From NCBI GenBank assembly GCA_963841435.1, contig CAWJCS010000005.1, forward strand, positions 1,504,001-1,568,000: a stretch of DNA of 64,000 nucleotides, written 5' to 3'. Position numbers and translations under genes: made by a program. Of the stretch, positions 2 to 17,509 are shown one piece after another; positions within the stretch are counted from its first letter, which is position 1; every line of letters starts with the position of its first letter. The stretch is from an uncultured delta proteobacterium (lineage in GTDB: Bacteria; Myxococcota_A; Polyangia; Polyangiales; Polyangiaceae). The notes beneath the pieces are model-generated. The model saw only the letters and a program-made list of their open reading frames with translations. It searched no databases and had not been told where the DNA came from.

Positions 2-229
2 AGCGACGCCACCATGCTGCGGATCCTCGAAGCCAAGGCGGCGGCCGCCGACACCGCGATCCGGGTCACGTCGGACGCCATGCACGCCTGCGGCGGGGCG
101 GCGTTCTCGCGGCACACCAGCGTCGAACGCTTCTTCCGCGACGCCCACGCCGGCGCCGTGATGGCGCCGACGAGCGACGTATTGCGCGAGTTCATCGGCA
201 AGGCCCTGCTCGGGATCCCGCTGTTTTGA
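2..229 (+). CDS. Acyl-CoA dehydrogenase, C-terminal part (5' truncated by window); FadE16/Rv1679-like
   Basis: Frame is open from the window edge. C-terminal ACAD motif AMHACGGAAF...VERFFRDAHAGAVMAPT; lies directly upstream of the Rv1680-like gene. Confidence 0.85.
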   Translation, partial: SDATMLRILEAKAAAADTAIRVTSDAMHACGGAAFSRHTSVERFFRDAHAGAVMAPTSDVLREFIGKALLGIPLF

Positions 230-264
230 TGCGGCGAGCCGCCGAGATCGGCTAAGGAAGCGAC

Positions 265-1077
265 ATGGAACTACTCCTCGGTGCGGTCGCCTACGACCCC
301 AAGGTCGTGACGATCTGGGAAGGTCTCCGCAGCTACTTCCGGGATGACGCTCGTCTCGACCTGGAGGTGGTCCTGTTTCTCTCGTACGAAGCGCAGGTCG
401 AAGCGCTCCTCCAGTCGAAAATCGACATCGCGTGGAACACGAATCTGGCGTTCTTGCAGGCCACCGCCAAGAACGAGCAGTGCAAGCCGCTGGCGATGCG
501 CGATACGGACATCGACTGGCGCACGTTGATCATCGCGCCCAAGGGCGGCGCGATCGGCAAATTGGAAGATCTGCGCGGCAAGCGCCTGGCGCTCGGAAGC
601 CGCGACAGTGGTCACGCGGCGATCTTGCCCGTGCATTTCCTGGCCGAGCTGGGCATGAGCGAAGGTCGCGACTACGAGAGCGTGCGTTTCGATTCCGACG
701 TCGGCAAGCACGGCGATACCGGCAAGAGTGAGCTCGAGGTGCTGCGCGCGGTGCTCGACGGCAGCGTCGCGGCGGGAGCCGTGGGTTCACCGTTCTACGC
801 GGGGCTCGCCGAGCAGCGCATCACGCCCGAGGGCGCGCTAGAAGTGGTGTGGGAGTCTCCCTCCTATCACCACTGCATGTTCACGAGCCGCCCTGGGCTC
901 GGGTCGGCGCAGGCGACGCGCTTCGCGCAGGCGCTGTTTGCGATGAGCTACGACAATCCGAAGCACCGCGAGATCCTCGACCTCGAGGGTCTCAAGCAGT
1001 GGGTCGAGCCCCGGCTCGAGGGCTACGCTTCGCTGAAGCGAGCGGGCGCCGAGCAGGGCTTCTTCCGAGGACACTGA
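265..1077 (+). CDS. PhnD/SsuA-fold substrate-binding-like protein without signal peptide (Rv1680-like)
   Basis: RBS AAGGAAG upstream. Motifs GAVAYDPKVVTIWEG, IDIAWNTNLA, LALGSRDSGHAAILP, GKHGDTG and YHHCMFT. No hydrophobic leader or lipobox. Confidence 0.85.
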   Translation: MELLLGAVAYDPKVVTIWEGLRSYFRDDARLDLEVVLFLSYEAQVEALLQSKIDIAWNTNLAFLQATAKNEQCKPLAMRDTDIDWRTLIIAPKGGAIGKLEDLRGKRLALGSRDSGHAAILPVHFLAELGMSEGRDYESVRFDSDVGKHGDTGKSELEVLRAVLDGSVAAGAVGSPFYAGLAEQRITPEGALEVVWESPSYHHCMFTSRPGLGSAQATRFAQALFAMSYDNPKHREILDLEGLKQWVEPRLEGYASLKRAGAEQGFFRGH

Positions 1078-1088
1078 CGCGTCCGCGG

Positions 1089-2372
1089 TCACCGGCTGCG
1101 GCCGACGGAGCGCCGTCCGACGAGCGTCTTGCCCGTGCCACCCAGCCGCGTCGCCAGGGTGACCATCGAGAAGCCGTAGCGCTCTCGAATTTCGTCGACC
1201 ACGCCGTCGACGCGCTCGTGGCGGTCGAAGAGACAGAGCTGCTCGAAGACGCCGAGATTCGAAAGCTGCAGGCCGAGCAGCCGCACCGGCAGTGAGCGTG
1301 TCCGCGCCGCCGTCAGGAGCTCCTTGACGACCGGGTACAGCTCGAGCTCCGAGCTCGTGGGCGCGAGCGTGCGCGAGCGGCTCAGCGTATTGAAGTCGGC
1401 ATAGCGGAGCTTCAGCGTCACCGTGCGCGCCTTGATGCCACGACTGCGCGCCCGCCAGCAGACTCGCTCGCACAAGCCGCACAGCACCGATTCGATCGAA
1501 GCGGGGTCGGAAATGTCCTCGCGGAAGGTGCGCTCGTTGGAGATGCTGCCCGCCGTCTCGCCCTCGGGGTCGTGCTCGGCGAAGGCGGGGCGCTCGCGGC
1601 CCAGATCGCCCGGGCCTTGCCCGCTCGCGCCGCGGCGAATCGTCGCCGCCCAGGCGCCGAAGATCCGGACGAGCGCTTCGAAGGGGGCGTCGGCCACCGC
1701 GCCGAGCGTGGTGTAGCCGGCCGCGCAGAGCTTGCTCTCCGCCACGGGGCCGATGCCGGGTAACGCGCGCACCGGCAAGGGACCGAGCACGGCGCGCTCC
1801 ACGCCACCGGGAACGAGCATCATGCCGCGTGGCTTGGCAAGATTCGAGGCCACTTTGGCCATGCTCTTGCTCGTGGCCAGCCCGGCACTGGCGGGCAGCC
1901 CGAGCTCGTCCCAGATCGCCGCCGTCAGGTCCAGCACCGATCGCTCGATCGCTACGTCGTCGCTTTCATCGCCAGGCTGCCGGTACAAGCCTTCGCAGCC
2001 GCGGAGGTCGAGGAACATTTCGTCGATGCTGGCGACCAGCACGACCGGCGTGTAGCGGCGCGCCAGCGCACGGACGCGTTCGGCGAAGTCCGAGTAGATG
2101 TCGCCGCGCGTGGGAAGATAGACGGCGTGGGGAGCGAGCTTGCCGGCTTCGACGAGCGACATACCGGATTTGACGCCGAGCGCGCGCACCTCGTAGCTCG
2201 CAGCCGTGACCACGCCGCGACTGCCCGGCTGGCCGCCAACGACGACCGGCTTGCCCTCGAGCGACGGATCGAGCACGCGCTCGACGGACACGAAGAAGGT
2301 ATCCAGATCGAGGCAGCAAATGCGTGGCTGGGGCAGCGGCCCCAGGTGGGCGAGCTGATGCGCAGTGGGCAC
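1089..2372 (-). CDS. dinB: DNA polymerase IV (Y family)
   Basis: CLDLDTFFVSVE, AASYEVR, SIDEMFLD, AKVASNLAKP, LPGIG and the little-finger motif TVTLKLRY. Confidence 0.95.
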   Translation of the reverse strand: MPTAHQLAHLGPLPQPRICCLDLDTFFVSVERVLDPSLEGKPVVVGGQPGSRGVVTAASYEVRALGVKSGMSLVEAGKLAPHAVYLPTRGDIYSDFAERVRALARRYTPVVLVASIDEMFLDLRGCEGLYRQPGDESDDVAIERSVLDLTAAIWDELGLPASAGLATSKSMAKVASNLAKPRGMMLVPGGVERAVLGPLPVRALPGIGPVAESKLCAAGYTTLGAVADAPFEALVRIFGAWAATIRRGASGQGPGDLGRERPAFAEHDPEGETAGSISNERTFREDISDPASIESVLCGLCERVCWRARSRGIKARTVTLKLRYADFNTLSRSRTLAPTSSELELYPVVKELLTAARTRSLPVRLLGLQLSNLGVFEQLCLFDRHERVDGVVDEIRERYGFSMVTLATRLGGTGKTLVGRRSVGRSR

Positions 2373-2391
2373 GGGAGCTCACGAGAGTAGA

Positions 2392-2409
2392 CCTGAACCC
2401 CTGTTCAGG
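2392..2409. promoter_or_regulatory. LexA (SOS) box, Myxococcus type
   Basis: Perfect inverted repeat CCTGAAC-CCCT-GTTCAGG about 20 bp upstream of the dinB start. One mismatch to the M. xanthus LexA consensus CTRHAMRYBYGTTCAGS. Confidence 0.85.
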
Positions 2410-2496
2410 CTAGAGCCACGTAAGCCACGGACATTGGAAAGAATTCCTGGCGGCTTCCCCTGCCGAAAAGCGAACCGCGTCCCGGCACGCCGCGCG

Positions 2497-3204
2497 CTAG
2501 CCGCCGGCATGGCGGCCGAGGCGGATCGCAAGGGCGTGACGGCCCACGCAGCTCACGATCTTGAACGCCGCTCGCGCGCTGCCGCCGAGCGTTCCCGAGA
2601 CCTTCGACTCACCTCCGGCGCGGCGGCGCCAGTGCACGTCAACCTCACGCCGCCGCAGCTCTTGCTGGTGCGCCTTGAGCAAGAGCTCGATGGTGAACCC
2701 GTGACCCGTGTCGCGCACGTCGAGGCGGTCGAGCGCCGCGCGCGTGATGGCCTTCTGCGGGGGCATGTCGTGGTAGTCGGCGCCGAGCGTCCAGCGCATG
2801 AAGAGCGGCGCCAGCAGATTGCCCACGCGCTGCACCGCGCTCATGCTCCCGGGCTCCATCAAGCGCGCCGCGCGCACCCCGAGCACAAGGTCCGCTTGTC
2901 CGGTCACCACGGGTGAGAGCACACTCGGGAGATCGCTCGGATCGTCGCTGCCGTCAGCGTCGAGGAACACCAGCACCGTCGCACCGAGCTGCCGCGCCCG
3001 CGCGACTCCCGCGAGGCAGGCGCTACCGTAGCCGCGGCGGGCCTCCCGCACGACGTCGGCGCCGGCCTCGGCGGCTCGCTCCGCGGTGCGATCGGCGCTG
3101 CCGTTGTCCACGACGATCACCCGGTCCACGAACGGCCGGACACCGTGGACCACGGTCGCAATGACCGCCTCTTCGTCGAGCGCCGGTAGGATCGCGGCGA
3201 TCAT
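2497..3204 (-). CDS. Glycosyltransferase family 2 (DPM1-like)
   Basis: ILPALDEE, VVDNGSADRT, GYGSAC and FLDADGSD (DxD). ATG at 3204 overlaps the upstream stop (ATGA). Confidence 0.92.
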   Translation of the reverse strand: MIAAILPALDEEAVIATVVHGVRPFVDRVIVVDNGSADRTAERAAEAGADVVREARRGYGSACLAGVARARQLGATVLVFLDADGSDDPSDLPSVLSPVVTGQADLVLGVRAARLMEPGSMSAVQRVGNLLAPLFMRWTLGADYHDMPPQKAITRAALDRLDVRDTGHGFTIELLLKAHQQELRRREVDVHWRRRAGGESKVSGTLGGSARAAFKIVSCVGRHALAIRLGRHAGG

Positions 3205-3860
3205 CGCAAGTCGAGCACCACTCGCGTGCGCGGACCCAGGCACGGGTCACGCGCGAGATCGCGGGAGAGCTCGTCGAGGTCCGGTACCTCGTCCACGTCG
3301 CAGCGGGCCGGCAGCTCGCGAACGGACAGGCCGAGCGCGGCGCACCGCTCTCGCGTCTTGTCCGCGACGCTGCTGGTGCTCCAAGGGATGTCCTCGAACA
3401 CCCCGAAGTCGCAGCGGGCGACGCCGATCAGGTAGTAGCCACCGTCGGTGCACGGTCCCAAAAGCAGCTGGCTCGGGTCGTCCCAGTCGCGGAGCGCCTC
3501 GCCGATTGCGTCGAACGGCGCCGTCGGCGAGTCGCTGCTCACGAGGATCGCGCGGCCGTCGCCGAGCACGGCTCGAGCGCGGACCAGCCGAGCGCCAAGA
3601 TCCGGGCCCATTTGCGGCTCGACGGACCAGCCCCGCGGCGAAAGGGCGCGGAGCGCCGCGACGCCATCGTTTTCGGGCGCGGCAAACAGCACGCGCGCCG
3701 CGAACGGCAGACGCGCATAGCCCTCGAGCGTGTCGAGCAACATCGCGCGATAGAGGTCCGCAGCTCTTACTGCGCCGAGCGAGCGCGCGAGGCGCGTCTT
3801 GCAAGCGCCGGGAATCGGGGCGCGCGCCATGACGCCGACCTTCGCGCCGTTCTCGAGCAT
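3201..3860 (-). CDS. TIGR04282/DUF2064 family transferase (GT-A/CofC-like)
   Basis: MARAPIPGACKTRL, QMGPDLGARL, SSDSP, LGPCTDGGYYLIG, IPWST and DVDEVPDL. Start reassigned to ATG 3860 inside the longer ORF. Confidence 0.9.
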   Translation of the reverse strand: MLENGAKVGVMARAPIPGACKTRLARSLGAVRAADLYRAMLLDTLEGYARLPFAARVLFAAPENDGVAALRALSPRGWSVEPQMGPDLGARLVRARAVLGDGRAILVSSDSPTAPFDAIGEALRDWDDPSQLLLGPCTDGGYYLIGVARCDFGVFEDIPWSTSSVADKTRERCAALGLSVRELPARCDVDEVPDLDELSRDLARDPCLGPRTRVVLDLR

Positions 3861-3867
3861 GCCGCGC

Positions 3868-4899
3868 TCACGCACAGTGGAACACCTTGAACATGCGCTG
3901 CCTGAGGGCGTGCTCCCGCTCGAACTCGCGCCGGAGGGCCGAAAGCGCGTTGGAAAGCGGTAGCGGCTCGCGGGTGACGAACAGGTCACGGTCCTCGGCG
4001 CCGACCGGGTGCCAAAACACTCCCTGGGCCGTGACGGTGAGCTCCGGCGCGAGATCCGCGCGCGATAGCACGATCCCCTGCTCGGCCGAGCCGCGGCGGG
4101 CCACGGGTCGGACGACGCGGTCCTCCTCTGCCACCTCCTGGCGATCGAGGAACGCGTGCATGGCTCTGGCGCTCGCGTCGCCCTCGACCGTCGCCGCCCA
4201 ACGTACTCGAAACCCGGCGCCCCGCGCTGCCCGGATCCCCCGCAGCGCCTTGTCCCAGCTGCCCTTTCCGCGATGGGTGTCGTGAAGCTCGGCCTCTGGG
4301 CTGTCGATGCTGATCTGAAACCGAAGGCGCTGTCGATCCAGGCCTTCGAGCTCCCGCAAGCGCTTGCCGAGCAGCAGGATGCCATTGGTGAGCACGGTGG
4401 TGGGCAGCGCTTCGCTGCAGATCGCCAAGAGCTCGGCGATGTACGGCAAGAGCAGCGGCTCGCCTCCAGTGACGAACAGCTCCTTCACGCCGAGGCCCGG
4501 CGCCTCACGAGCGAGCTCGCGAACCGTGTCGAGGCCGAGAGCGCGGCGCTCCGCCCGCGGCGACGAGCGCACGCAGCAGTAGTCGCAGGCAAGATTGCAG
4601 TCGAAATTGGTATAGAGCCAGAGCCGTTCCCCCAGCGCGACGGGCTCCTCGGAGGGCGCCGGCCCCTTGCGCAGCACGTAGCGCGTCCCTGCGGGCTCTT
4701 CGGAGGCCTCGACGATCGAGTTTTCGGTCAGCCTCGCCCATTGGTCGAGGCCCTCGGCGACGCCGAGGTCTCTCGAGACCAGCGCGAAGAGCTCTCCCGG
4801 ACCGAGCGAACGGAGCGCCTCCTGCAGGGTCAAGAGCAGCCCGTCGGCGAAGGTTCGTTCGACGATCCCCAAGTCGAGCTGGGCGGTCAGCTTGGCCAT
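3868..4899 (-). CDS. Radical SAM protein with N-terminal TusA/SirA-like domain (Rv1681/'MoeX'-like)
   Basis: RLWLYTNFDCNLACDYCC (CxxxCxxC), FVTGGEP, TTVLTNG, QISIDS, PELTVTAQGVFWHP and C-terminal FHCA. The first ~80 aa follow the TusA pattern but lack Cys. Confidence 0.9.
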   Translation of the reverse strand: MAKLTAQLDLGIVERTFADGLLLTLQEALRSLGPGELFALVSRDLGVAEGLDQWARLTENSIVEASEEPAGTRYVLRKGPAPSEEPVALGERLWLYTNFDCNLACDYCCVRSSPRAERRALGLDTVRELAREAPGLGVKELFVTGGEPLLLPYIAELLAICSEALPTTVLTNGILLLGKRLRELEGLDRQRLRFQISIDSPEAELHDTHRGKGSWDKALRGIRAARGAGFRVRWAATVEGDASARAMHAFLDRQEVAEEDRVVRPVARRGSAEQGIVLSRADLAPELTVTAQGVFWHPVGAEDRDLFVTREPLPLSNALSALRREFEREHALRQRMFKVFHCA

Positions 4900-4903
4900 G
4901 AGC

Positions 4904-6043
4904 TCAGCGGATCACGCCGCGGGCGCGCAGCTCCTGGTTGGCACGGTCCGAGCGATCGTCGGGGCGTTGCCGCGCGGCCCAGGCCGCGAGCTCGGCGATA
5001 CCCGTCTCGAGGTCGACCCGCGGTTGCCAGCCGAGCACGCCCTTGGCGCGGGAGATGTCCGCAAAACAGTGGCGAATGTCGCCGACACGGTATTCGTTGC
5101 TGAGCTCGGGAGCGAGCGGACTCTCGAGCGCCGAAACCAGCAAGCGCGCGAGGGCGAGGATCGTGACCGCGCGTCCAGAGCCGACGTTGAACGCCTGAAA
5201 GTCGGCCTCGGGCCCTGCGTCGGCCGCCGCGATGGTGGCGGCCGCAACGTCGCTCACGTGCACGAAGTCGCGCAGCTGGGCGCCGTCCTCGAACACCGCG
5301 GGACGGCGCCCGTTGAGCACGCGAGCAGCCCAGATGGCGGCGACCCCGGTGTAGGGATTTCCCAGCGCTTGACGCGACCCAAAGGTGCAAAGGTAGCGAA
5401 GCGCCACGGTGGGCAAGTCGTTGGCGCGGCCGACTACCAGGCATAGTTCCTCCTGATCGCGCTTGCTGATCCCGTACACGCTGTTCGGCCGGAGCGAGCG
5501 CGCTTCGGAGATGGGCAGCGGATCCGCCGTGCGGCCGCATTCGGGACAGGTCGGCTCCCAATGGTGCTCGGCGAGCCTTTCGGCGGAGCGCTCCGCGCTC
5601 ACGAGCTCCCCGTGCTCGGGACAGCAGTAGGCGCCATCGCCGTACACGACCATCGACGACGCGACGACCAAGCGCCGAACGTGCTTCCGCCGAACGACCA
5701 GCTGCTCGAGCAACGTGGCGGTCCCCACGCTGTTTGCGTCCACGTAGCGACGTACCTCGATCATCGACTGACCGTTCCCGACCATCCCGCCGAGGTGGTA
5801 GACGACATCGACGCCGTCGAGAGAGCGGGCGACCGCGTCGGCATCTCGGAGGTCCCCCACGACGAGCTCGGCGTCCTTCGACAGGTGGGGAGCCGTGCCG
5901 TCGGGGTGCGCCTGCAGATCGAGATTGTCGAGAACGCGCACCGCGTCGCCGCGCGCGAGCAACGCGTCCACGAGGTGCGAGCCGATGAAGCCGGCGCCTC
6001 CCGTCACCAGGGCGCGCTCGCCTGCTCTGCGTGTAAAAGCCAT
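4904..6043 (-). CDS. NAD-dependent epimerase/dehydratase (extended SDR, NDP-sugar modifying)
   Basis: ALVTGGAGFIGSHL, ASSMVVYG, YGISK (YxxxK), LRDFVHVSD and GDIRHC. Has a Cys-rich insert (CPEHG...CPECG). Confidence 0.92.
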   Translation of the reverse strand: MAFTRRAGERALVTGGAGFIGSHLVDALLARGDAVRVLDNLDLQAHPDGTAPHLSKDAELVVGDLRDADAVARSLDGVDVVYHLGGMVGNGQSMIEVRRYVDANSVGTATLLEQLVVRRKHVRRLVVASSMVVYGDGAYCCPEHGELVSAERSAERLAEHHWEPTCPECGRTADPLPISEARSLRPNSVYGISKRDQEELCLVVGRANDLPTVALRYLCTFGSRQALGNPYTGVAAIWAARVLNGRRPAVFEDGAQLRDFVHVSDVAAATIAAADAGPEADFQAFNVGSGRAVTILALARLLVSALESPLAPELSNEYRVGDIRHCFADISRAKGVLGWQPRVDLETGIAELAAWAARQRPDDRSDRANQELRARGVIR

Positions 6044-6188
6044 GCCGCCAGGGGTCGGGTACGGTGTGGAGTGGGGAGCGGTTACGATACAGCTCGTCCC
6101 ACCCTCGCGGGCTCCCGCGGCTTCCTCCGCGCCCGTGGGCTGACGAGGCGCACTCGGCTTCGAGGCCGGGACCCACTAGACTCGCCGG

Positions 6189-6974
6189 GTGCAGCTTGGC
6201 CCCACCCTCGGCCGCATCTTGTCGAACCTGGTGCTCCCCGGCTCCGTGGCGGTGTGTCTGGTCGCGGGGTTGCCTTCGGTGGCCCACGCCGAGGGTGGGG
6301 CAGCGCCGAGCTGGTGCGCCCCCGAGCTCGACGTGCTGTCCGGCGACGTGTGTCTCGCCACCCCCGAGCGGCCGAGCGAGCCGAAGACGGTGGTGCTCTT
6401 TCTCCACAGCCTGGTGTCACGGAACACGAGCGTCCAATGGGAGCAGCAGCGCACCATCGCGCGTGCCGCCCGCGGGCACGGGATGGCCGCGCTCATGCCG
6501 CGCGGCCGGCTGGGGCTCGGCCCGGGCGGCGCGCCGGACGTCTGGGCGTGGCCGACGGCCGAGCGCACCGAGCGAGCGGTCGAGGCCGAGCTCGTCGCCG
6601 AATGGACGCGCGCGCGGGAGCAAGCGGAAGAGCGGCTCGGACGGTTCGAGCGCGTCTTCGTGTTCGGCTTCTCGAGCGGCGCGTATTACGCGGCGTCACT
6701 CGCTTTGCGCAATCGCATCGGTGCCGACGGCTTCGGCATCATCGCGGGCGGCTCCGGCGCGAAGTGGAAGGCGCGTCTGGCTCGCACGGTCGAGCACCGT
6801 GCGCCCATCTTCATCGGCTACGGCACCAAGGATCCGGCGCGCGCGGACCCTCGCGGCCTCGCGCGGCTCCTGCACAAGCTCGCCTGGCCACACCGGCTCG
6901 AAGCCAAACCCGTCGGCCACACGGTGACGAACGCGCTACTCGATGACGCGTTCGCGTACCTGACGAAGCGTTGA
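6189..6974 (+). CDS. Secreted alpha/beta hydrolase (esterase-like)
   Basis: Signal peptide ending AHA. VLFLHS, nucleophile elbow GFSSG, GTKD and GH near the C-terminus. Confidence 0.75.
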   Translation: MQLGPTLGRILSNLVLPGSVAVCLVAGLPSVAHAEGGAAPSWCAPELDVLSGDVCLATPERPSEPKTVVLFLHSLVSRNTSVQWEQQRTIARAARGHGMAALMPRGRLGLGPGGAPDVWAWPTAERTERAVEAELVAEWTRAREQAEERLGRFERVFVFGFSSGAYYAASLALRNRIGADGFGIIAGGSGAKWKARLARTVEHRAPIFIGYGTKDPARADPRGLARLLHKLAWPHRLEAKPVGHTVTNALLDDAFAYLTKR

Positions 6975-7219
6975 GCTCGGTGGGTCGCTGTACTTCGTCG
7001 GGCAAATGAAGGCACCGAGCGACTGTGCCGGCAGATGCTGGAAACGCCGGTGCGCTTGACGACGACGTTCTCCGGGGGGCCGGCAGGCCGGAGTCGGGCG
7101 GGCCAGGGCGGGCCGGGCGGGCTCACCTACCTGCCCCCCGCCGCCGTGCATCGTTTGCACGCCCTCTGCGCGGGCCGCATGATCGCATGCTCCCAATGCA
7201 CGAGGTGCCGGCCCCATCC

Positions 7220-8542
7220 ATGACGCGTTCGCCCAACGGGTTCGTTCGACTGACGTGTTGCGTCGCGCTCCTTGCAGCGCTCGGGGGCTGCGGTGGAACG
7301 TCAACCAGCGGGACCACGCTGGGACCGCCCGACGCCGTGCTGTGGGCGGAGGCGACCTCGGGTCCGGTCGAGCTCCGCGGCGTCTACCAGGGGCACACGG
7401 GGACGATCCCGTTCGGTTTCGCGAACGGTAGCTACGTGGTCTCTCCCGATCGCCGTCACGTCTTTCTGCGCAACGACGACGGTTCCTCCATCGTGGACGT
7501 TGACGGCACGGAGCACCCCTTGGAGCAGACGTACTGGCTCGCCTGGTCCCCAGACGGAAAGCGCCTCGCCATGGTGAATGACGGCTCGCCCGTGGTCGCG
7601 GACGACGACGGAACCAATCCCGTGGGTGTTCCCTTCGACGCCCAGGCCCCCACCACCGCGATCACGTGGTCTCCGAACGGAGCCACCGTCGCCTTCGGCA
7701 TCGATCAAACCCTCGTGCTCTCGCCCGCGGACGGAACCACCGCCATCGTGGCCTCGACTGGCCCGCCGACGGCGCCCGAAAGCGACGTGCGCTGGACCCT
7801 CCAACCGAGCTTTTCTCCGGACGGGTCCACGCTCGCCGTGGTCTCGTCGGAGGGGACGCTGACCTTCGTGGACGCTGAGGGCACGGTCACTGCGTCGGTC
7901 CTCGGTGCCACGACTCCGACCTTCGGTTGGTCCGCCGACGGCGCATGGCTCGCCGTGAGGACGGCCAACGGCGCCTGCGTCGTCGCCAATCCTGACGGGC
8001 GGACGCTGGTCGTGCTTCCGGCGAACTGTGTCTCGGCGGCCTGGTCGCCCGTGGACGTCCGACTTGCCGTCAACGATTTCGGCGGCATGGGGCTCGGCAC
8101 GTTGGGCGTCTGGTCCCCAGGTGACGACGCTCCAGTCGCGCTCGCGGACAATCCCGTAGAGTCAACGCACGCCTGGTCGCCGGATGGTTCGATCCTCTCT
8201 TTTGTGTCACGCGACGGTGGCGTCGTGCTCATCGACGCCAGCGACGGTACCGAGATCGCGCGGGCGACGGCACGAGAGCTCGCGTGGAACTCGACGGGGT
8301 CGCGGTTGTTCTTCGTGTCCGACCAGGACGAGGTCGTGACGGCAGATGGGCGCGGTGCCTCGCAGCTGTCCATTGCGGGCGACGCGCGCGGCGTCACGTG
8401 GTTACCGGATGGGGAGCATCTCGCCGTCGCTGCGTCGCGCGAGGTGTTCACGGTGGGGGCCAATGGGGAAGGCCGAGTGATGGTCTCGGAGATCCCCGCG
8501 GGAATCGCGGCGGTTGGCTGGGCCGAGCCGCAGTCGCCCTGA
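7220..8542 (+). CDS. TolB/WD40-like beta-propeller lipoprotein
   Basis: Lipobox LGGC and repeated WSPDG/FSPDG motifs. Start reassigned to ATG 7220. Confidence 0.8.
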   Translation: MTRSPNGFVRLTCCVALLAALGGCGGTSTSGTTLGPPDAVLWAEATSGPVELRGVYQGHTGTIPFGFANGSYVVSPDRRHVFLRNDDGSSIVDVDGTEHPLEQTYWLAWSPDGKRLAMVNDGSPVVADDDGTNPVGVPFDAQAPTTAITWSPNGATVAFGIDQTLVLSPADGTTAIVASTGPPTAPESDVRWTLQPSFSPDGSTLAVVSSEGTLTFVDAEGTVTASVLGATTPTFGWSADGAWLAVRTANGACVVANPDGRTLVVLPANCVSAAWSPVDVRLAVNDFGGMGLGTLGVWSPGDDAPVALADNPVESTHAWSPDGSILSFVSRDGGVVLIDASDGTEIARATARELAWNSTGSRLFFVSDQDEVVTADGRGASQLSIAGDARGVTWLPDGEHLAVAASREVFTVGANGEGRVMVSEIPAGIAAVGWAEPQSP

Positions 8543-8672
8543 TCGGCGCGCTCCCGTCGCTTCGAGCGGCGGCGTCCGCGCCGGCGCGGCCAGGCCCGGT
8601 GTTCCGGCCGCGAAGGGGCGCTCCGAATCGTCCCTACACTCGGTCATCACCCGCGAGTAAGCTCCCGCCCGA

Positions 8673-10355
8673 ATGTCCGACGCGGAGCCGCTTCCCGACG
8701 CGACCCGACGCGAGCTCCTCGCCATGCTCGGCGCGGGAGCCGCCATCACGCTCGGCATCGGCGCTTGCTCCGGAAGCTGCCGGCGCGGTCGACGCGCAGG
8801 AGGCGAAGCGTCGAACGCCGCTCAGATCGCCGCCGTGCTTCCGGCGTACCACCCCATCAAGTTGCTCGAGCCGGAGGTCCCGGGAGAGGGTCCCATCCCC
8901 GATGGGTTCTTGAGTTACCCGAAGACGAAGTTCGCGCGCGTGATCAAAGAGAAGCCGGGGCTTCGTGGACCTCAGATCCGATCGATGACGCCGTGGTGGG
9001 GACCGGTCGCGCCGGGTCTGGGTCGTAACGCGTACCTTGCCGCGATCAACGCCGAGCTCGGCGTCGAGATGAACCCGATCATCCAGGACGGCAACACGTA
9101 CGGCGACAAGCTGAGCGCCGTGCTCGGCGCGCGGGACGTGCCAGATCTGCTCTGCGCGCCCTCGTGGGAAGTGGATAAAATCCCACGCTTCTCGCAGGCG
9201 GTGAAAGCATTGTTTGCGGATCTGACCGAGCATTTAAAAGGGGAGAACGTCAGCACCTACCCGATGCTCGCCACCCTCCCGACCGCCTCCTGGCAGCACT
9301 CGGTCTGGGGCGGGAGGCTCGCGGCGATCCCCTTCCCAACCGACGGACCTTTCCCGTGGGGGATGTTCTACCGCAAGGACCTCACCGACGCGGCCGGGCT
9401 CGAGCCGCCCGCGACGATCGACGAGCTCTATCGGTTCGGGAAGAAGGCGACCGACCCGAGCCGCGGCGTCTGGGCGTTCGGAGACACGTTCGAGATGATC
9501 CAGATGTACTTCAAGTGCCCCGGTTCCAAGGGCGGCTGGGGGCGCAAGCCGGGCGGCGGGCTCGAGTTCAAGTACGAGACCAAGCAGTACCGCCAGGCGG
9601 TCGAGTTCACGGCACGGCTCTACAAGGAAGGGTTCGTGCACCCGGACATGGTCGCGTCGAGCGGCGCCGACGCGAAGCAGCTCTTCAAGTCGGGAAAGAT
9701 CTTGATGCAACGCGACGGCATGGGTGCCTGGCGCGGCATGCAGAGCGAGCAAGTGAAGATCAAGCCGGACTTCGACATGCAGCCACTGCCGGTTTTTTCC
9801 GCGGTCGGCGGTGATCCGCTGGTCTGGGGCAGCAACAACCCCGTCTTCTTCACTTTCCTCAAGAAGGGCCTCGGTGAGAAGCGAACCCGGGAGCTCCTCC
9901 GCGTGTTGGACTGGTGCGCGGCGCCCTTCGGCAGCTTCGAGTACGAGCTCAACCTCTACGGCGTGGAGGGCCAGCACTTCACACGCGCTGCGGACAACAG
10001 CCCCATCCCCACGGAGCTCGGCCGAAAAGAGATTGTCAATCAGTTCGAGTTCATCAGTGGGCGCGCCCCCGTCCTGGTCGGAACGGACGACGTGCCGCAC
10101 TTCGTCCGCGACCTCATCGCGTACTCGAAGGCGACCGCAAAATACATGGAGCGTGACCTCTTCGAGGGCATCAAGCTCGAGTTTCCGGCGAGCTACTCGT
10201 CCGTCATCGTCAGCACCGAAGACAAGATCCGCGACGTGGTGCGCGGCCGCCGGCCACTCTCCGACCTCGACGAGATCGTGGAAGAGTGGCGCCGCACTGG
10301 TGGTGACGATGGGCGGGCCTTCTTCGAGAAGGCCCTGAGCGACAACGGCCGATGA
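8673..10355 (+). CDS. Carbohydrate ABC transporter substrate-binding lipoprotein, Tat-exported (LplA-like)
   Basis: TRRELL twin-arginine motif plus IGAC lipobox; FYRKD, YGVEGQHF and EWRRTGG. First gene of the ABC operon. Confidence 0.88.
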   Translation: MSDAEPLPDATRRELLAMLGAGAAITLGIGACSGSCRRGRRAGGEASNAAQIAAVLPAYHPIKLLEPEVPGEGPIPDGFLSYPKTKFARVIKEKPGLRGPQIRSMTPWWGPVAPGLGRNAYLAAINAELGVEMNPIIQDGNTYGDKLSAVLGARDVPDLLCAPSWEVDKIPRFSQAVKALFADLTEHLKGENVSTYPMLATLPTASWQHSVWGGRLAAIPFPTDGPFPWGMFYRKDLTDAAGLEPPATIDELYRFGKKATDPSRGVWAFGDTFEMIQMYFKCPGSKGGWGRKPGGGLEFKYETKQYRQAVEFTARLYKEGFVHPDMVASSGADAKQLFKSGKILMQRDGMGAWRGMQSEQVKIKPDFDMQPLPVFSAVGGDPLVWGSNNPVFFTFLKKGLGEKRTRELLRVLDWCAAPFGSFEYELNLYGVEGQHFTRAADNSPIPTELGRKEIVNQFEFISGRAPVLVGTDDVPHFVRDLIAYSKATAKYMERDLFEGIKLEFPASYSSVIVSTEDKIRDVVRGRRPLSDLDEIVEEWRRTGGDDGRAFFEKALSDNGR

Positions 10356-11338
10356 CCTCCGCCCAAGCCACCCTGAAAAGCCCGGGCGATGGCCGCACGC
10401 CGGCGGCGCGCAGCCGCCTAGCGGCGCGCTTCCGGCGTGATTGGCCGCTGCTCGCCATGACGGCGCCCGCGGCCCTTTTGCTCTTGATTTTCCACTACGT
10501 GCCGACGCTCGGCAACGTGATCGCGTTTCAGGACTACAACCCCTTCGAGGGCAAGGACGCGCTCGAGGCGTTCTTGAAGAGCGACTGGGTCGGCGTCGAC
10601 AACTTCATCACACTCTTCGAGCAGCCGGCGTTCTGGGACGCGGTCGTCAACACGCTCAGCATCACGCTGTTTCAGCTGGTGTTCTTCTTTCCGCTGCCGA
10701 TCTTCCTCGCCATCCTGCTGCACGGCCTCGCATCTCAAAAGCTCCGGGGCTTCATCCAGAGCGTGGTGTACCTGCCGCACTTCTTCAGCTGGGTGCTCGT
10801 GATCACGTTCTTCGTGCAGATGCTGGGCGGCGCCGGGCTGCTCGCACAACAGATGCGGGGCGCAGGGCTCGAGCCCTGGGAGCTGATGAGCAAGCCCGAT
10901 ACGTTCATCGTGCTCGTCACCGCAGAAGCGGTGTGGAAGGACGTGGGCTGGGGCTCGATCGTCTTTCTGGCAGCGCTCTCGGCGATCGATCCGACGCTGT
11001 ACGAGGCCGCCGCTGCCGACGGCGCTGGGCGCTTTCGCAGGCTCTGGCACGTCACGCTGCCGGGTCTGAGACCGGTCATCGTGCTGCTTTTGATCCTGCG
11101 GCTGGGCGACGCGCTCAGCGTCGGCTTCGAGCAGTATCTTTTGCAGCGCGAGGCCGTCGGTCGGCAGGCGGCGGAAGTGCTCGACACCTATGTCTACTAC
11201 CAAGCGATCGTGCCACAGCAGTGGGGCCTCGGCGCGGCGGCGGGCCTGTTCAAAGCCGTCGTCGGGCTCGTCTTGATCCTCGGCGCGAATCGCCTGGCCC
11301 ACGAGCTCGGCGAGCAAGGCGTGTACTCGAAGGCATGA
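10352..11338 (+). CDS. Carbohydrate ABC transporter permease (LplB-like)
   Basis: YLPHFFSWV and EAA loop LYEAAAADGAGRFRRLWHVTLP. ATGA overlap with the SBP gene. Confidence 0.93.
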   Translation: MTSAQATLKSPGDGRTPAARSRLAARFRRDWPLLAMTAPAALLLLIFHYVPTLGNVIAFQDYNPFEGKDALEAFLKSDWVGVDNFITLFEQPAFWDAVVNTLSITLFQLVFFFPLPIFLAILLHGLASQKLRGFIQSVVYLPHFFSWVLVITFFVQMLGGAGLLAQQMRGAGLEPWELMSKPDTFIVLVTAEAVWKDVGWGSIVFLAALSAIDPTLYEAAAADGAGRFRRLWHVTLPGLRPVIVLLLILRLGDALSVGFEQYLLQREAVGRQAAEVLDTYVYYQAIVPQQWGLGAAAGLFKAVVGLVLILGANRLAHELGEQGVYSKA

Positions 11339-13254: not shown

Positions 13255-14586
13255 TCACTTCGCGGGCGCGGGTCCACAGCGGGCTTTCATGCGCTCGGGT
13301 GTGAACAGGCTAGCCACGGAGCGGGGCAGGCGTTGCACGCTCGAGACGAGCCCCGCGTCGCCTCCGCCGACGCGATTGATGAACTCCCAGACGACCTCAC
13401 CCGCGGGGTCAACCTCGAATGCCCGCCCCCCGAACGCCTCCGTGATCAGCAAGTTGCCGTTGTCGAGCCACTGATGCTTGCCCATCTTCGACGTGAAAAA
13501 CGGGTGCTCGCGAGACCCGCGGAAAACGACGTGCTCGTTGCCGTCGGGCGCAGAGACTTCGACGATCTCGCTGGCTTGTCGCTGCTTGGGGCCGCCGTGG
13601 TTGTTGTTGACGAACACCGAGATGGTGTTGCCGTCCACGAAATCGGGATCGTGCTGCGCCACCAGCCGGCCGATCGACTCGAACTTCACCTTGAGCGTCT
13701 TGGCGTCCAGCACCATCACCGTGTGGACGTCCCTGAAGGAGACCATGATGTCGCCCCGCTGAAAGAAGCCGGGGGTCATCTTGCCCGAGAAGACCTCGAC
13801 GTCGTTCAGGTGCAGCGAAGTCCCCCCCATCTTCGGATCGGGAACGTAAGGCGCCCGCATCAAGAGCAGGCCGTAATATCCCTGGTCCCAGAGCTCCTTG
13901 AGCAAGGAGATCTCGCGCAACACTCGGCCGTCCTGCGACACGTGGAGGACCATCTGCTCGGGGAACGGCGGGTTATAGCCGGGCAGCCACGGCAGCCGGT
14001 CGAGGTGCCACTTCTTGCCGGGGATCCAGAGCGTACCGTCGTCGTCAACGTAGATCGAATGGTGCGTGAGGTAGGGCAAGCGCCAAACGGCGTGATCGCA
14101 CGGGTCCAAGCGCACCAGACCCAGTCCCTCGTAGTTGTAAATGAGGTCGCCATTTTCCGCGAGGAACGCGCCGTGGATGAGCGTGCCGGGCTCGGTCTGT
14201 GGGCGGGCGCCCTCGGGAATGTGCTTGGCGTCGGGCCAGATTTTGAACCAGTCCGGCTTCCACTCGTGGATGACGCGCTGATCCATGTCCATCAGGCGCA
14301 CGGACAGCTGGTTGTCGGCAACGACGCCGGCAACCAGGTTCACGCCGTCCTGCGTCCGCTTCCGCGCGTCCGCGGCGAGCGGTGTCGGCTTCGGCGCGGG
14401 GAAGTAGTGGACGGGCTTGCGCATCAGCGTGATGAGGGTCTGGCGCCCGGCCTCGAGCAGTGGATACGGAAACCAGTGGCGGACGGACGAGACGTAGCCG
14501 TACCCGACCGACACGACGACGAGGCCGACCATGAACGCCGCTCGCGACAGACCCTCCGCGCTGACGCGCTTGAGAAAATGCTGCAC
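13255..14586 (-). CDS. Arylsulfotransferase (ASST)-family beta-propeller protein
   Basis: N-terminal TM anchor; THHSI, HLNDVE, QHDPDF, QWLDNGNLLITE and EVVWEF. Confidence 0.8.
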   Translation of the reverse strand: MQHFLKRVSAEGLSRAAFMVGLVVVSVGYGYVSSVRHWFPYPLLEAGRQTLITLMRKPVHYFPAPKPTPLAADARKRTQDGVNLVAGVVADNQLSVRLMDMDQRVIHEWKPDWFKIWPDAKHIPEGARPQTEPGTLIHGAFLAENGDLIYNYEGLGLVRLDPCDHAVWRLPYLTHHSIYVDDDGTLWIPGKKWHLDRLPWLPGYNPPFPEQMVLHVSQDGRVLREISLLKELWDQGYYGLLLMRAPYVPDPKMGGTSLHLNDVEVFSGKMTPGFFQRGDIMVSFRDVHTVMVLDAKTLKVKFESIGRLVAQHDPDFVDGNTISVFVNNNHGGPKQRQASEIVEVSAPDGNEHVVFRGSREHPFFTSKMGKHQWLDNGNLLITEAFGGRAFEVDPAGEVVWEFINRVGGGDAGLVSSVQRLPRSVASLFTPERMKARCGPAPAK

Positions 14587-14899
14587 GATACTGCCTCAGC
14601 ACGGCCGAGGCGCGGAGCCAAGCCCCGAGGTATAGCGGAGTTGCGCGTTAACTCAGCAGCACCGGCCGGCGAGCTGGAACGGCTGCCCAGCTCGTGGCGC
14701 AAACCGCCCCCCCGGGTACCCGCTTGGCACGCGCTTCCTGCGCCTGTTCGAAAGAATCGCGCGGGCGCCCTGCGTGCCCGAGCCCGAGCTCGTCGTGGCT
14801 CTCGACGCGCGGCGCGAGCTGTCGCACTTCAGCGGATCGGCGCTCGGCGCGCGCTCGGCAAAACCACGACCATGACCTCAGGCGACGCGCGCCGCCGGC

Positions 14900-17509
14900 T
14901 CAGCGCACCGACGCCCCCGCCCCGAGCACGCGCAGATCGAAGCAGCGCACGGCCCCGCCGCTCCAGGTGACGCCGAGCTCACCCCGCTTTCCGCGGCGCG
15001 CCCGCGTGTCGAATTGCACGGTTTGCTCCCAGAGCCACGGGGGCTGTGTGGGGAAGTTGGCGAGCGGCGCACCATCGAGAACGACGGCTATCCGGCCTGC
15101 GCCGTTCTTCGGGGTGTCGTAGTCGAGCGCGAGAAACGAGCCCAGCTCGAGCTCGGTGGCGAGTGTCACGGCTCCGACGGGGGGCGCCGTCATGCAGAGG
15201 TGGATGCCCCACACCTCGGACTGGACGGCCGCTGCCGTCAGCGTGTGCGGACCGCAATGGAAAACGAGGGGGGCGGAGCGTTCGCAGCGCTCGCCTGCCA
15301 GCGAAAGCTCGGGCCCGGTGAGACCATGGAAGATCGACTCCTCGGAGAGCAGGCGCGCGCGTGTCCGCGTGCGAAGAGCCACGCTGCCGACGAGCAGAAG
15401 CAGCGTGACGATCAGCGCGTAGCCGATCGAGCGACGGTGCCGCACGAGCGCCTGCGCCGCACGCTCGACAACGTCCGGCCTGCGCCGCATCGCGAACGAG
15501 GCGCCGAAAAAGACCGGCAGCGATGCGAGTGATGCGAAGAGCCCGAGCCAGTCGGCCGGGCGACGCACGTACTCGAACACGACCTCGCCGTCCGTCACCG
15601 GAACCTCCATCAAGATGGGGTACTCGTATTCTTTGACGGCAACGGTGGTGATGGGAAGGACCGAACCGTGCTCGCTCGCTTGCCACCGCGAGTAGCTCGC
15701 GACGTGCAGCTTGAGGCGGGTGCCGGGTGACGTCCCCGAAAGCGCGATCCTGATCCGCTCGGCAGAAAATTCCAAGAGCCGCGCGTGTCCCGTACCGACG
15801 AGGGTGAAAGGATCCGGGCGAAAGTCGCGAAACTCGTACACCCAGAGGCTGCCGAAGCGCCGGGAAAACACGAGCTCGGGTGCGGACGCCGGCTCGGTCG
15901 TGACGACGTACTTGACCGAGAGCGCCCGGTAGAGGTCGAGGTCGTCCGCCATGGGAATGCGGCGGAAGATCTGCGCCGGCGTCGTACCCAGCTTGTAGAT
16001 GGGCGTCCGGTCGTAGACGGGCAACAGCGTCGGAAGGTGGTTGCCGCGCCAGACCTTGTACACGATGCGGTAGAGCCCGGGCGTCTCGTTTCGCACCTGG
16101 CGCGACCAGCGGAGGAGCGCCTCGTAGTCGTGCCAGTGCTCGATGTCGTCCTGTCCCTTGATGGGAAACGAGAGGTCTTCTTCGTAGATCTTGCGAGCAC
16201 CCGGGACCACGAGGCCCGCGGCGGCGACCAGGAGGATTGCCGCCCCGAGCACGCGCCCGACACTGCCGGCGCCTTCTCGCTTCGTCGTCGTTTCACGCCG
16301 GCGCGAGGACAGCGCGACGAGCGACGTGACTGCGTAGGCCGCGAGCGGGAACCAGACGAGCTTCGCGACCACGAGCAATCGGTTGACCTCGAGCTTGACG
16401 AGCGCGGGAAAGGCCCGCTCGAGGTGAAGGTCGGAAAAGATCGTGTTCGAGGCGAGAAACAGACAGACGAGCGCTGCGCTCGCGCAGAAGAAGCCTCCCG
16501 GAGCCTTGCGGCGCAAGGCCAGGTAGCCGCCGCCCAGCGCCAGGAAATGAACGACGGGCCATTGACCCTGAAAGCTCTGCCCGAAAAAAAAGCGCTGGCC
16601 GACCACAGCAAGCGACTCGTGCATCCAGCCGAGGTCCAGCGTGTCCTTCGTGTGCGAAAAGAACGGGATCAGGAAGAACCCGGACAGCCCGAGCCCCAAG
16701 CCCAGCGCAGCAGCAGCGCTCGCGAAGCGACGAGCCGGGGGCGGCGCCGCGCGCAGGGCATGGTCGAGAAAAAGCAGCGGAACGAGCAGCGGGAACGCGA
16801 CGATCGGCAGCGCGTGCGCAAGGAGCGAAAGGGCGAAGTAGAGCCCCGCGAGAAACACGTCGCGCACGCCCGCCCCACCGAGCACGCGGTCGAGGCGCAC
16901 CAGGGCGAGCGCGAAAAGCGCCATCGAGAGCGTCACGGGCCAGACGCCCCAATACGTGTGCCACTCCCAACCGCCCTCGAGCTGGCCGCCGCGATCGAGC
17001 GTCATGAGCACGGCGGCAAGCACGCCTGCCGTTCTCCCGAAGAAGTGCCGCGCGAAGCGAAAGGCCGCATAAGCCTTCAGCAGCATGAGCCCGGCGAAGG
17101 CGACGGCGTAGCTCCTCGCCCACGACAGCATGCCGAGGAGCGCGTAGTGAAACAGCCCGACCCAAACCTCACCGCCCGGCGGCACGAGCTCGTCGGAGGG
17201 AAAGCCGAAACCCCAGTAGTTGCTCCAGCCCCGGAGGCGTCCGCTCGGAAGGAGCTCGGTCCAGAAGTGCCACGCTTTGAAGACGTGCGTGAAGTGGTCG
17301 TACGTGAGCGGGATCTTGCTGATGATGCCAGGGGCGAGCAGCAACGCCGGAAGGAGCGCGAGCACGAGCGCCGCGATCTCCTTGCGGCGGTCCGAGGCGA
17401 ACAACGCGGGAACCGTGCGCCACGCGGCTTCGAGTCGATGGCGGAGCGAAGGGGCGCCCCCGGTCGGGGTGCGCTCGTCGGAAGCGCCGGGCGGATCCTC
17501 GGCGGCCAT
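14900..17509 (-). CDS. Large polytopic membrane protein, PTPS-related/YfhO-like (GT-C fold glycosyltransferase candidate)
   Basis: About 12-14 TM segments. First loop has DHFTH and GWSNYWGFGFP; soluble domain has LSVKYVV. Confidence 0.7.
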   Translation of the reverse strand: MAAEDPPGASDERTPTGGAPSLRHRLEAAWRTVPALFASDRRKEIAALVLALLPALLLAPGIISKIPLTYDHFTHVFKAWHFWTELLPSGRLRGWSNYWGFGFPSDELVPPGGEVWVGLFHYALLGMLSWARSYAVAFAGLMLLKAYAAFRFARHFFGRTAGVLAAVLMTLDRGGQLEGGWEWHTYWGVWPVTLSMALFALALVRLDRVLGGAGVRDVFLAGLYFALSLLAHALPIVAFPLLVPLLFLDHALRAAPPPARRFASAAAALGLGLGLSGFFLIPFFSHTKDTLDLGWMHESLAVVGQRFFFGQSFQGQWPVVHFLALGGGYLALRRKAPGGFFCASAALVCLFLASNTIFSDLHLERAFPALVKLEVNRLLVVAKLVWFPLAAYAVTSLVALSSRRRETTTKREGAGSVGRVLGAAILLVAAAGLVVPGARKIYEEDLSFPIKGQDDIEHWHDYEALLRWSRQVRNETPGLYRIVYKVWRGNHLPTLLPVYDRTPIYKLGTTPAQIFRRIPMADDLDLYRALSVKYVVTTEPASAPELVFSRRFGSLWVYEFRDFRPDPFTLVGTGHARLLEFSAERIRIALSGTSPGTRLKLHVASYSRWQASEHGSVLPITTVAVKEYEYPILMEVPVTDGEVVFEYVRRPADWLGLFASLASLPVFFGASFAMRRRPDVVERAAQALVRHRRSIGYALIVTLLLLVGSVALRTRTRARLLSEESIFHGLTGPELSLAGERCERSAPLVFHCGPHTLTAAAVQSEVWGIHLCMTAPPVGAVTLATELELGSFLALDYDTPKNGAGRIAVVLDGAPLANFPTQPPWLWEQTVQFDTRARRGKRGELGVTWSGGAVRCFDLRVLGAGASVR

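Follow-up and report, generated by a model that had tools for sequence, protein, structure and literature searches.

A Polyangiaceae gene cluster linking an Rv1679-Rv1681-like trio to a candidate methylthioxylose-type sugar module

The gene cluster at the start of the window

The window analysed here is a stretch of 64,000 nucleotides from an uncultured delta proteobacterium of the Polyangiaceae, corresponding to C5:1504001-1568000, where C5 denotes the contig of the window genome; positions given alone are those of the window. Its first six kilobases carry relatives of the Mycobacterium tuberculosis proteins Rv1679 (FadE16), Rv1680 and Rv1681, a trio of a flavoprotein, a PhnD-fold binding protein and a radical SAM protein, together with three sugar genes encoding an epimerase, a DUF2064 protein and a family 2 glycosyltransferase (GT2). 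Genes were called by open reading frame (ORF) listing and translation followed by Pfam and NCBIfam scans, and those upstream of the window were found by analysis of GC content at third codon positions (GC3) and searches.

2..229, + strand: 3' end (last 75 residues) of the Rv1679/FadE16-like gene of acyl-CoA dehydrogenase (ACAD) fold; whole gene C5:1503084-1504229, 381 amino acids
265..1077, + strand: Rv1680-like cytoplasmic PhnD-fold protein, like substrate-binding proteins (SBP-like), 270 amino acids; NF049985, PF12974
3868..4899, - strand: Rv1681-family radical SAM protein with N-terminal TusA-like domain; NF049973, 410.8 bits
4904..6043, - strand: GalE3-like epimerase, an extended short-chain dehydrogenase/reductase (SDR) with a Cys/His insertion; PF01370, 153.9 bits
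3201..3860, - strand: DUF2064/TIGR04282 protein of CofC/MobA-like nucleotidyltransferase fold; TIGR04282, 150.3 bits
2497..3204, - strand: MtxS-like GT2 of the polyprenyl-phosphate sugar synthase type; PF00535, 67.9 bits
C5:1497374-1498396, upstream of the window: 5'-methylthioadenosine phosphorylase (MTAP); NF006492, 472.8 bits, above the cut-off of 437
C5:1498419-1499954, 22 bp downstream of the MTAP gene: multi-pass membrane glycosyltransferase of GT-C fold, 511 amino acids, assigned by predicted structure
C5:1500417-1501283, opposite strand: lipoprotein-like gene whose signal ends in VVGC; no significant Pfam match
C5:1501678-1503210, opposite strand: signal-peptide protein with a CxxCH motif; no significant Pfam match
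1089..2372, - strand: DNA polymerase IV (DinB); PF00817 and PF11799; NF002882, 286.8 bits, below cut-off
6189-6974, + strand: exported alpha/beta hydrolase, divergent from the epimerase gene; NF050058, 35.8 bits, below cut-off

A preliminary description of this DNA had reported the six genes with a 4-bp gap, a 7-bp gap and an ATGA overlap between those of the minus strand. All of these are real as judged by the ORF calls, the family scans and the sequence, in which the junctions read TGA-GCTC-ATG, TGA-GCGCGGC-ATG and ATGA. The DUF2064 gene is the only one of its kind in the 7.78-Mb window genome and sits 7 bp from the radical SAM gene; linkage of trio and DUF2064 is thus far beyond chance. The GC content over the cluster is not deviant.

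The lipoprotein-like gene and the gene for the CxxCH protein recur as homologues in versions of the cluster from other Polyangiales/Myxococcales. Homologues of the former adjoin DUF2064/GT2 genes in four related loci (L007, L012, L022 and L044); as for the latter, L007 contains one homologue, and contig C3 of the window genome carries paralogues. The CxxCH signal-peptide protein may be considered a candidate acceptor or periplasmic helper.

The dinB gene lies between the genes of the PhnD-fold protein and GT2, starts 125 bp past the GT2 stop codon and splits the two halves of the cluster. Because no homologue was seen in the related loci it looks like a local insertion or rearrangement, and it is not counted as a pathway member. 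The alpha/beta hydrolase has a weak likeness to short-chain polyhydroxyalkanoate depolymerase and was likewise not seen in related loci.

Family relationships of the trio and the sugar genes

The resemblance of three products to Rv1679, Rv1680 and Rv1681, which the preliminary description had proposed from motifs, holds in profile searches in that the respective NCBIfam family is the best match for each of them. Only the radical SAM protein exceeds its curated cut-off (NF049973, 'Rv1681 family radical SAM protein', cut-off 380, model positions 1-326; 410.6 bits in the genome-wide search). The PhnD-fold protein scores 327.9 bits with NF049985 ('Rv1680 family SBP-like'), which is under the cut-off of 400 and the best match by more than 220 bits. 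The full 381-residue flavoprotein scores 413.5 bits with NF049984 ('Rv1679 family'), under the cut-off of 600, with the next family at 122.2 bits.

In the flavoprotein the canonical ACAD catalytic glutamate (YEGT in three solved ACADs) is aligned with an alanine (VMAPT), and replacement at this position is kept at 95% or more in 71 family members. The families matched next best include 3-sulfinopropanoyl-CoA desulfinase (109.8 bits) and SfnB (100.8 bits), which we regard as a hint at sulfur. The PhnD-fold protein (PF12974, 130.6 bits) begins directly at a family-invariant GAVAY strand, with the ribosome-binding sequence AAGGAAG 5 nt upstream of its ATG; there is therefore no room for a signal peptide, and the protein is cytoplasmic, in agreement with its first description as signal-less. 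Its next-best matches, a putative selenate binder (104.7 bits) and SsuA (40 bits), were again counted as a sulfur hint. Many polar residues (DSGH, GKHGDTG, HC.F, HR) are invariant among 28 sequences from several phyla, and no ABC permease or ATPase was present among the conserved neighbour clusters of the gene. Roles in beta-oxidation and transport, which had been doubted from the outset, are indeed unlikely because the catalytic glutamate is replaced and the binding protein lacks a signal peptide. We rejected beta-oxidation on the former ground, and phosphonate transport on the latter together with the missing ABC partner genes.

The radical SAM protein contains a CNLxCDYCC motif, that is, one CX3CX2C plus a fourth invariant cysteine. 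Residues C101, C105, C108, C109, F340 and C342 are invariant in 36 sequences, actinobacterial ones included. C342 is the penultimate residue and belongs to the F-x-C-A/G ending of the family, and no SPASM or twitch cysteine set was detected. The AlphaFold model (mean predicted local distance difference test, pLDDT, 86.2) has a beta-alpha-beta-alpha-beta-beta N-domain and a disordered tail at residues 340-343. A function of the N-domain as TusA sulfurtransferase was dismissed: despite the TusA-like fold of the model its PF01206 score of 18.6 is below the gathering score of 28.6, and the active-site cysteine is missing, with no cysteine at all in 16 aligned members. A molybdopterin role of the MoaA/'MoeX' kind was discarded as well (TIGR02666, 56.2 bits against 284; TIGR02668, 58.6 against 325). 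Foldseek returned generic neighbours with template-modelling (TM) scores of 0.4-0.5, namely BlsE, SkfB, SuiB, MoaA, DesII, EpeE and viperin, and among solved structures there was no close relative of the radical SAM protein, the flavoprotein or the binding protein. Our literature searches yielded no open paper treating Rv1679, Rv1680 and Rv1681 together. Judged by title, entries on Rv1681/MoeX deal with urinary biomarkers, those on fadE16, Rv1678 and Rv1680 are omics or unrelated work with nothing functional, and those on DUF2064, TIGR04282 and TIGR04283 are unrelated.

Synthesis of methylthioxylose (MTX) is regarded as a mycobacterial peculiarity. The literature describes Rv0539 as MtxS, which makes the lipid-linked MTX donor (PMC12088412, PMC8780516), Rv0541c as MtxT, a GT-C enzyme placing MTX on mannoside caps (PMC8780516, PMC3229680), 5'-methylthioadenosine as the MTX precursor, and GT-C enzymes as using lipid-linked donors outside the membrane (PMC11127046). 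In the discussion of Kelly et al. 2024, MTX-type modification beyond the assembly of lipoarabinomannan is called unclear (PMC11127046). Among the entries listed in our search for MTX sugar names almost all were mycobacterial or on lipoarabinomannan and the rest metabolomic or general glycan work; none concerned a non-mycobacterial glycan, by title.

The preliminary description had treated the sugar genes as enzymes added to the trio. Their linkage to the trio stands, but they are not generic additions: together with the upstream MTAP gene they are homologues of the mycobacterial MTX module of MTAP, a GalE3-like epimerase, DUF2064 and an MtxS-like GT2, accompanied upstream by a GT-C-fold enzyme that may take the part of MtxT. 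The window GT2 has AglJ (111 bits) and PpgS (77 bits) as best NCBIfam matches, both below cut-off, and is 40% identical (E 2e-32) to P0413, a 210-residue 'putative dolichyl-phosphate sugar synthase' of the M. tuberculosis complex, which, going by its annotation text, we take to be the probable Rv0539/MtxS. The DUF2064 protein passes the TIGR04282 cut-off of 134 bits, has an uncharacterised entry (3cgx) as its nearest solved structure and is 32% identical to an M. simiae copy encoded beside an MtxS-like GT2. The epimerase shares 42% identity with the M. simiae epimerase, and an insertion of the form YxCxxHG...CPxC is common to both.

The M. simiae locus comprises, in this order, an AMP-binding (menE-like) gene, a gene for a 450-residue membrane protein without Pfam match, a permease gene, DUF2064, GT2, a DUF7937-family gene (PF25592), unassigned ORFs, the epimerase gene and an MTAP gene (NF005876, 469.7 bits, above the cut-off of 306) that overlaps the epimerase gene by 4 bp. 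The trio is encoded on this contig too, at a distance of 18 kb. The order of the locus presumably matches that of Rv0535 (pnp), Rv0536 (galE3), Rv0539, Rv0540, Rv0541c and menE in M. tuberculosis, where pnp, galE3 and Rv0540 likewise take part in MTX synthesis, as reportedly described by Angala et al. in 2017. A 90%-identity cluster, to whose representative the M. simiae GT2 is 89% identical, includes M. tuberculosis-labelled GT2s and the 210-residue protein P0413. A search for related loci yielded 80 from mycobacterial species other than M. tuberculosis, and it is by these labelled members that the tie to the M. tuberculosis locus is made.

The predicted structure of the 511-residue membrane protein upstream of the window (pLDDT 87.8; predicted TM score 0.90) matched only GT-C glycosyltransferases down to E 0.01, with ArnT as the top PDB match followed by STT3/PglB, ALG12, AftA, AftB, Pmt4 and PimE. 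The protein itself has no Pfam match; in its family, PMT_2 was found in 5 of 15 members and GT87 in one. The 450-residue M. simiae protein gave no tblastn match on the window region.

Distribution of the gene set and of arsenosugar-type cassettes

Relatives of the radical SAM protein were collected by an alignment-based scan with one genome per species, which returned at least 586 of them. The best 80 loci (set 1) come from Bradyrhizobium and other Alphaproteobacteria, Acidobacteria, Verrucomicrobia and Polyangiales/Myxococcales. A further 80 loci, mostly actinobacterial, were obtained with a divergent member as seed and were reduced to 76 (set 2) by dropping three that repeat contigs of set 1 and one already included. 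To count neighbours, the loci were searched by tblastn, the queries being the window proteins and representative members of the conserved neighbour clusters; a match had to reach E<=1e-6, to cover 50% or more of the query and to satisfy a bit threshold. A locus is called fully flanked if it extends 8 kb or more to either side (46 in set 1, 35 in set 2). Genes near that of the radical SAM protein were found as follows.

PhnD-fold (SBP-like) protein: set 1, 76/80; set 2, 73/76
Flavoprotein: set 1, 69/80; set 2, 62/76
DUF2064: set 1, 60/80 (fully flanked 42/46); set 2, 25/76 (15/35)
GT2: set 1, 57/80 (fully flanked 41/46); set 2, 24/76 (14/35)
GT-C-like membrane protein: set 1, 45/80 (fully flanked 35/46); set 2, 21/76 (11/35)
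DoxX-like membrane protein: set 1, 54/80 (fully flanked 39/46); set 2, 46/76 (26/35)
Enzyme of the purine nucleoside phosphorylase (PNP) family: set 1, 21/80; set 2, 11/76
Epimerase: set 1, 3/80; set 2, 17/76 (fully flanked 8/35)

The gene set thus recurs in at least five phyla, and some relatives mix both groups of genes in single-strand operons, for example:

L007: flavoprotein (FadE16) > SBP > epimerase > radical SAM > DUF2064 > GT2
L044: GT-C > PNP-like > flavoprotein (FadE16) > SBP > radical SAM
L022: PNP-like > epimerase > radical SAM > lipoprotein > GT2
L053 (Verrucomicrobia): DUF2064 > GT-C > epimerase > GT2 > DoxX-like > radical SAM

Trio and sugar genes co-occur across phyla, so that the functional linkage deduced for them from the window alone is upheld by this survey. 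When the ORFs of set 1 were clustered all against all, 32 loci proved to encode a radical SAM/SPASM protein as well and 22 a methyltransferase. In the Bradyrhizobium-type loci (L008-L068; e.g. L026, positions 14267-19586) the additional radical SAM/SPASM protein is nearest to TIGR04317 (145.7 bits, below cut-off), the methyltransferase has a weak ArsM likeness, and the membrane proteins are DoxX/DoxD-like, which was counted as another sulfur hint, as was the TusA-like fold in the Rv1681-like radical SAM protein.

The usual actinobacterial order, on one strand, is DoxX-like gene, flavoprotein, SBP and radical SAM. Five actinobacterial genomes with the trio and no DUF2064 gene within 10 kb of it all carry DUF2064 elsewhere. 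Their five best-scoring copies are all encoded beside a GT2 37-41% identical to that of the window; each of the five loci also contains an epimerase 37-44% identical to that of the window, and two of them a GT-C-like gene. Another two DUF2064 copies, found in two of these genomes, lack adjacent genes for GT2 and epimerase. In a sample of 151 Mycobacteriales genomes, one of them unpublished, 15 have an Rv1681-like match (E<=1e-40), of which three are over the cut-off and eight are of a short form; DUF2064 (E<=1e-15) is present in 14 of these 15. The trio is nearly always accompanied by an MTX-like module.

Within the phylum of the window genome the Rv1681 family was detected in only 2 of 151 sampled genomes, the window genome itself and, weakly, one other, and in none of 11 genomes of its own taxonomic family. 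It is common in soil Alphaproteobacteria and Acidobacteria, and this distribution suggests that the spread of this protein family has been patchy and probably horizontal.

TIGR04282 is named after arsenosugar loci, in which its partners are ArsS, a radical SAM protein that adenosylates arsenic (PMC12159101), and TIGR04283. As the preliminary description had indicated, both partners are missing from the window genome: the best score for ArsS (TIGR04167) is 38.1 bits against a cut-off of 300, and that for TIGR04283 is 72.9 against 182, with the window GT2 at 39.1. No ArsM gene lies near the cluster. Of 151 genomes sampled from the phylum, 61 have an ArsS over its cut-off, yet only 1 of 13 Myxococcota ArsS loci (L289-L301) has a DUF2064 gene within 7 kb, so the link of ArsS to TIGR04282 is not general in the phylum.

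A Streptomyces locus (L193, positions 4651915-4668481 of contig C1 of its own genome) represents another system, separate from that of the window yet organised on the same principle. Its positions 3564-11086 encode a MerA-like disulfide oxidoreductase, a weakly radical-SAM-like protein of 552 residues, an MTAP-like phosphorylase, TIGR04282 (153.5 bits) and TIGR04283 (228.7 bits) proteins that both pass their cut-offs, and finally an Rv1681-like radical SAM protein (273 bits) of the short form, without the TusA-like part, to which a Metallophos_2 domain is fused. In three further genomes the short form is encoded at a distance of about 3 kb from a TIGR04282 gene that scores highly. Rv1681-type radical SAM proteins can therefore occupy the position of ArsS. 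Like the Rv1681 family, ArsS carries a cysteine close to its C-terminus (..SSCGG.. a few residues before the end, compared with F-x-C-A/G), which is a parallel and not homology.

A candidate pathway and its alternatives

The best overall explanation that we can offer, held tentatively and at a little less than even confidence, is that the six window genes and the four genes upstream form a single pathway. At the level of the pathway as a whole we consider it reasonably probable that the product is an MTX-type, polyprenyl-phosphate-linked 5-deoxy-5-substituted pentofuranose for an envelope glycan. MTAP would phosphorolyse a 5'-substituted 5'-deoxyadenosine to a 5-substituted ribose-1-phosphate, which DUF2064 would activate to a sugar nucleoside diphosphate (NDP-sugar); after conversion by the SDR epimerase the sugar would be transferred to polyprenyl phosphate by the MtxS-like GT2 and, outside the cytoplasmic membrane, to an envelope glycan or lipoprotein by the GT-C enzyme. 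The trio would supply or tailor the 5-substituent. Specifically, the radical SAM protein might fill the ArsS slot and attach a 5'-deoxyadenosyl group to a small acceptor, most likely a sulfur-based one, that the cytoplasmic PhnD-fold protein may hold and the non-canonical flavoprotein may oxidise or prepare. An adenosyl transferase is the role that we favour for the radical SAM protein, though with low confidence. It is tempting to speculate further, though we think it somewhat less likely still, that Rv1681-type proteins constitute a second heteroatom-adenosylating family, analogous to ArsS, which together with the binder and the flavoprotein makes a new 5'-X-5'-deoxyadenosine (X being oxidised sulfur, selenium or phosphorus, not methylthio) and thereby leads to an as yet unseen 5-substituted pentofuranose on envelope glycans.

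Several observations weigh against this proposal. The 40% identity of the GT2 to an MtxS-like protein does not fix the sugar, and the DUF2064 protein is as close to an ArsS-linked copy (35% identity) as to the mycobacterial one, a difference that does not discriminate between the two. The GT-C-like proteins of different lineages are not demonstrably related: hhalign gave a probability of 2% for the Polyangiales protein against the family of neighbour cluster 9 and of 0.7% for the 450-residue M. simiae protein against the same cluster, and we therefore claim no homology among them. In Mycobacteriales, DUF2064 is present in 98 of 151 genomes and the Rv1681-like radical SAM protein in only 15, so an MTX-like module exists and works without the trio. 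Neither ArsS (37.9 bits) nor HpnH (54.6 bits) is matched particularly well by the radical SAM protein, and its structural neighbours BlsE, MoaA, DesII and viperin are hydrogen-abstracting enzymes that act on nucleosides or NDP-sugars. Finally, searches of the window genome, which is 95% complete, with hidden Markov models (E<=1e-5) detected no DoxX-like, radical SAM/SPASM, cluster-20 PNP-like or cluster-9 GT-C-like protein, and the methyltransferase profile gave only two weak matches, which score about 44 bits and lie at a great distance from the cluster.

The main alternative is an MTX-like pathway that is fed by ordinary 5'-methylthioadenosine and in which the trio only tailors the product, a possibility that we rate on a par with the doubtful adenosyl transfer. 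Speaking for it are the true MTAP in the cluster and the likeness of the radical SAM model to enzymes that act on nucleosides or NDP-sugars. The radical SAM protein would then abstract a hydrogen from a nucleoside or NDP-pentose for epimerisation, dehydration or a similar reaction, the flavoprotein, with its missing ACAD glutamate and its distant likeness to SfnB and DszC, would oxidise the thioether to a sulfoxide or sulfone, and the PhnD-fold protein would bind a sugar phosphate. In set 1 an epimerase accompanies the radical SAM protein in only 3 of 80 loci, so the latter could replace it; the window and several other loci, however, have both. Moreover, TM scores of 0.4-0.5 are generic for the radical SAM core, and in the L193 cassette an Rv1681-like protein stands exactly in the ArsS position. 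The soluble glycosylated sulfur, selenium or arsenic metabolite or cofactor of the preliminary description fares less well. The TIGR04282 name, the CofC/MobA-like fold, the resemblance of a set of radical SAM protein, flavoprotein and binding protein to cofactor pathways, and the selenate-binder family as second-best match of the PhnD-fold protein would fit cofactor-type chemistry. Against it stand the GT2, which is of the polyprenyl-phosphate sugar synthase type (AglJ, PpgS, MtxS-like), and the conservation in the cluster of a lipoprotein gene and a GT-C transferase, the latter a type of enzyme described as using lipid-linked donors (PMC11127046). A soluble product without envelope modification thus seems improbable to us. 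As the sugar genes are homologues of an MTX module, the likely product is not a soluble cofactor but a lipid-linked thio-type pentose destined for an envelope glycan. There is no sign of arsenic, and selenium or another heteroatom may be involved.

An arsenosugar pathway proper, which the name given to TIGR04282 in NCBIfam implies, is very hard to maintain. The DUF2064 protein does score over the cut-off and ArsS is common in the phylum, but the window genome lacks ArsS and TIGR04283 over cut-off as well as a nearby ArsM, and of the 13 ArsS loci from the phylum a single one contains DUF2064 within 7 kb. We give just as little credence to generic roles in beta-oxidation, phosphonate uptake, molybdopterin synthesis ('MoeX') and UDP-glucose epimerisation by genes that are neighbours by accident. 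The Pfam matches are generic, and Rv1680, PhnD-like by fold, is listed in one source as a putative phosphonate transporter component (PMC8562490). The missing ACAD glutamate, the binder without signal peptide or ABC partner, and MoaA scores of 56-59 bits against cut-offs of 284-325 argue otherwise, and recurrence of the gene set in at least five phyla, with the counts given above, is at odds with accidental neighbourhood.

What appears to be new here, as read from the sequences, is the link of the Rv1679-Rv1681-like trio to an MTX-type module. With it the orphan trio, curated in NCBIfam with no function given, would gain a first testable place in a pathway, and MTX-like thio-sugars or analogues would be predicted on envelope glycans of many soil bacteria. 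The 'arsenosugar' proteins TIGR04282 and TIGR04283 might be recast as general handlers of 5-substituted ribose-1-phosphates, and we flag the database name 'arsenosugar' for TIGR04282 as over-specific. If adenosylation of the Rv1681 type proved true, soil Proteobacteria, Acidobacteria and Actinobacteria, among them mycobacteria, would widely possess the system.

Compared with known systems, the proposed pathway most resembles the MTX capping of mycobacterial lipoarabinomannan, with which it shares MTAP, a GalE3-like SDR with the Cys/His insertion, DUF2064, a small GT2 and a GT-C-fold transferase. It differs in that the window comes from a Polyangiales-type bacterium without lipoarabinomannan, in that the genes are interleaved with those of a radical SAM protein, a flavoprotein and a PhnD-fold protein, and in that the GT-C enzyme belongs to another sequence family. 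The NCBIfam Rv1679, Rv1680 and Rv1681 families are the best families for all three window proteins, whose genes lie together; in the window, however, the flavoprotein and the binder stay below the cut-offs, the trio is spread over two strands and the DoxX-like gene, which comes before the trio in the majority of actinobacterial loci (26 of the 35 with full flanks), was not found. Common to the window and the arsenosugar cassette (ArsS, TIGR04282, TIGR04283) is a radical SAM gene beside TIGR04282 DUF2064 and GT2 genes, and in Streptomyces L193 an Rv1681-like protein even occurs with both canonical partners and an MTAP-like gene. By contrast, the window radical SAM protein is of another family than ArsS, the window GT2 is not TIGR04283 and arsenic genes are missing. 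The hopanoid enzymes HpnH, HpnG, HpnA and HpnB, which combine an adenosyl-transferring radical SAM protein, an adenine-removing PNP-family enzyme, an SDR 'sugar epimerase' and a GT2, offer an analogy of logic, not of membership: the weak matches to the four models (54.6, 24.9, 63.4 and 17.5 bits, respectively) all fall well short of the cut-offs, and the neighbourhood contains no hopanoid genes.

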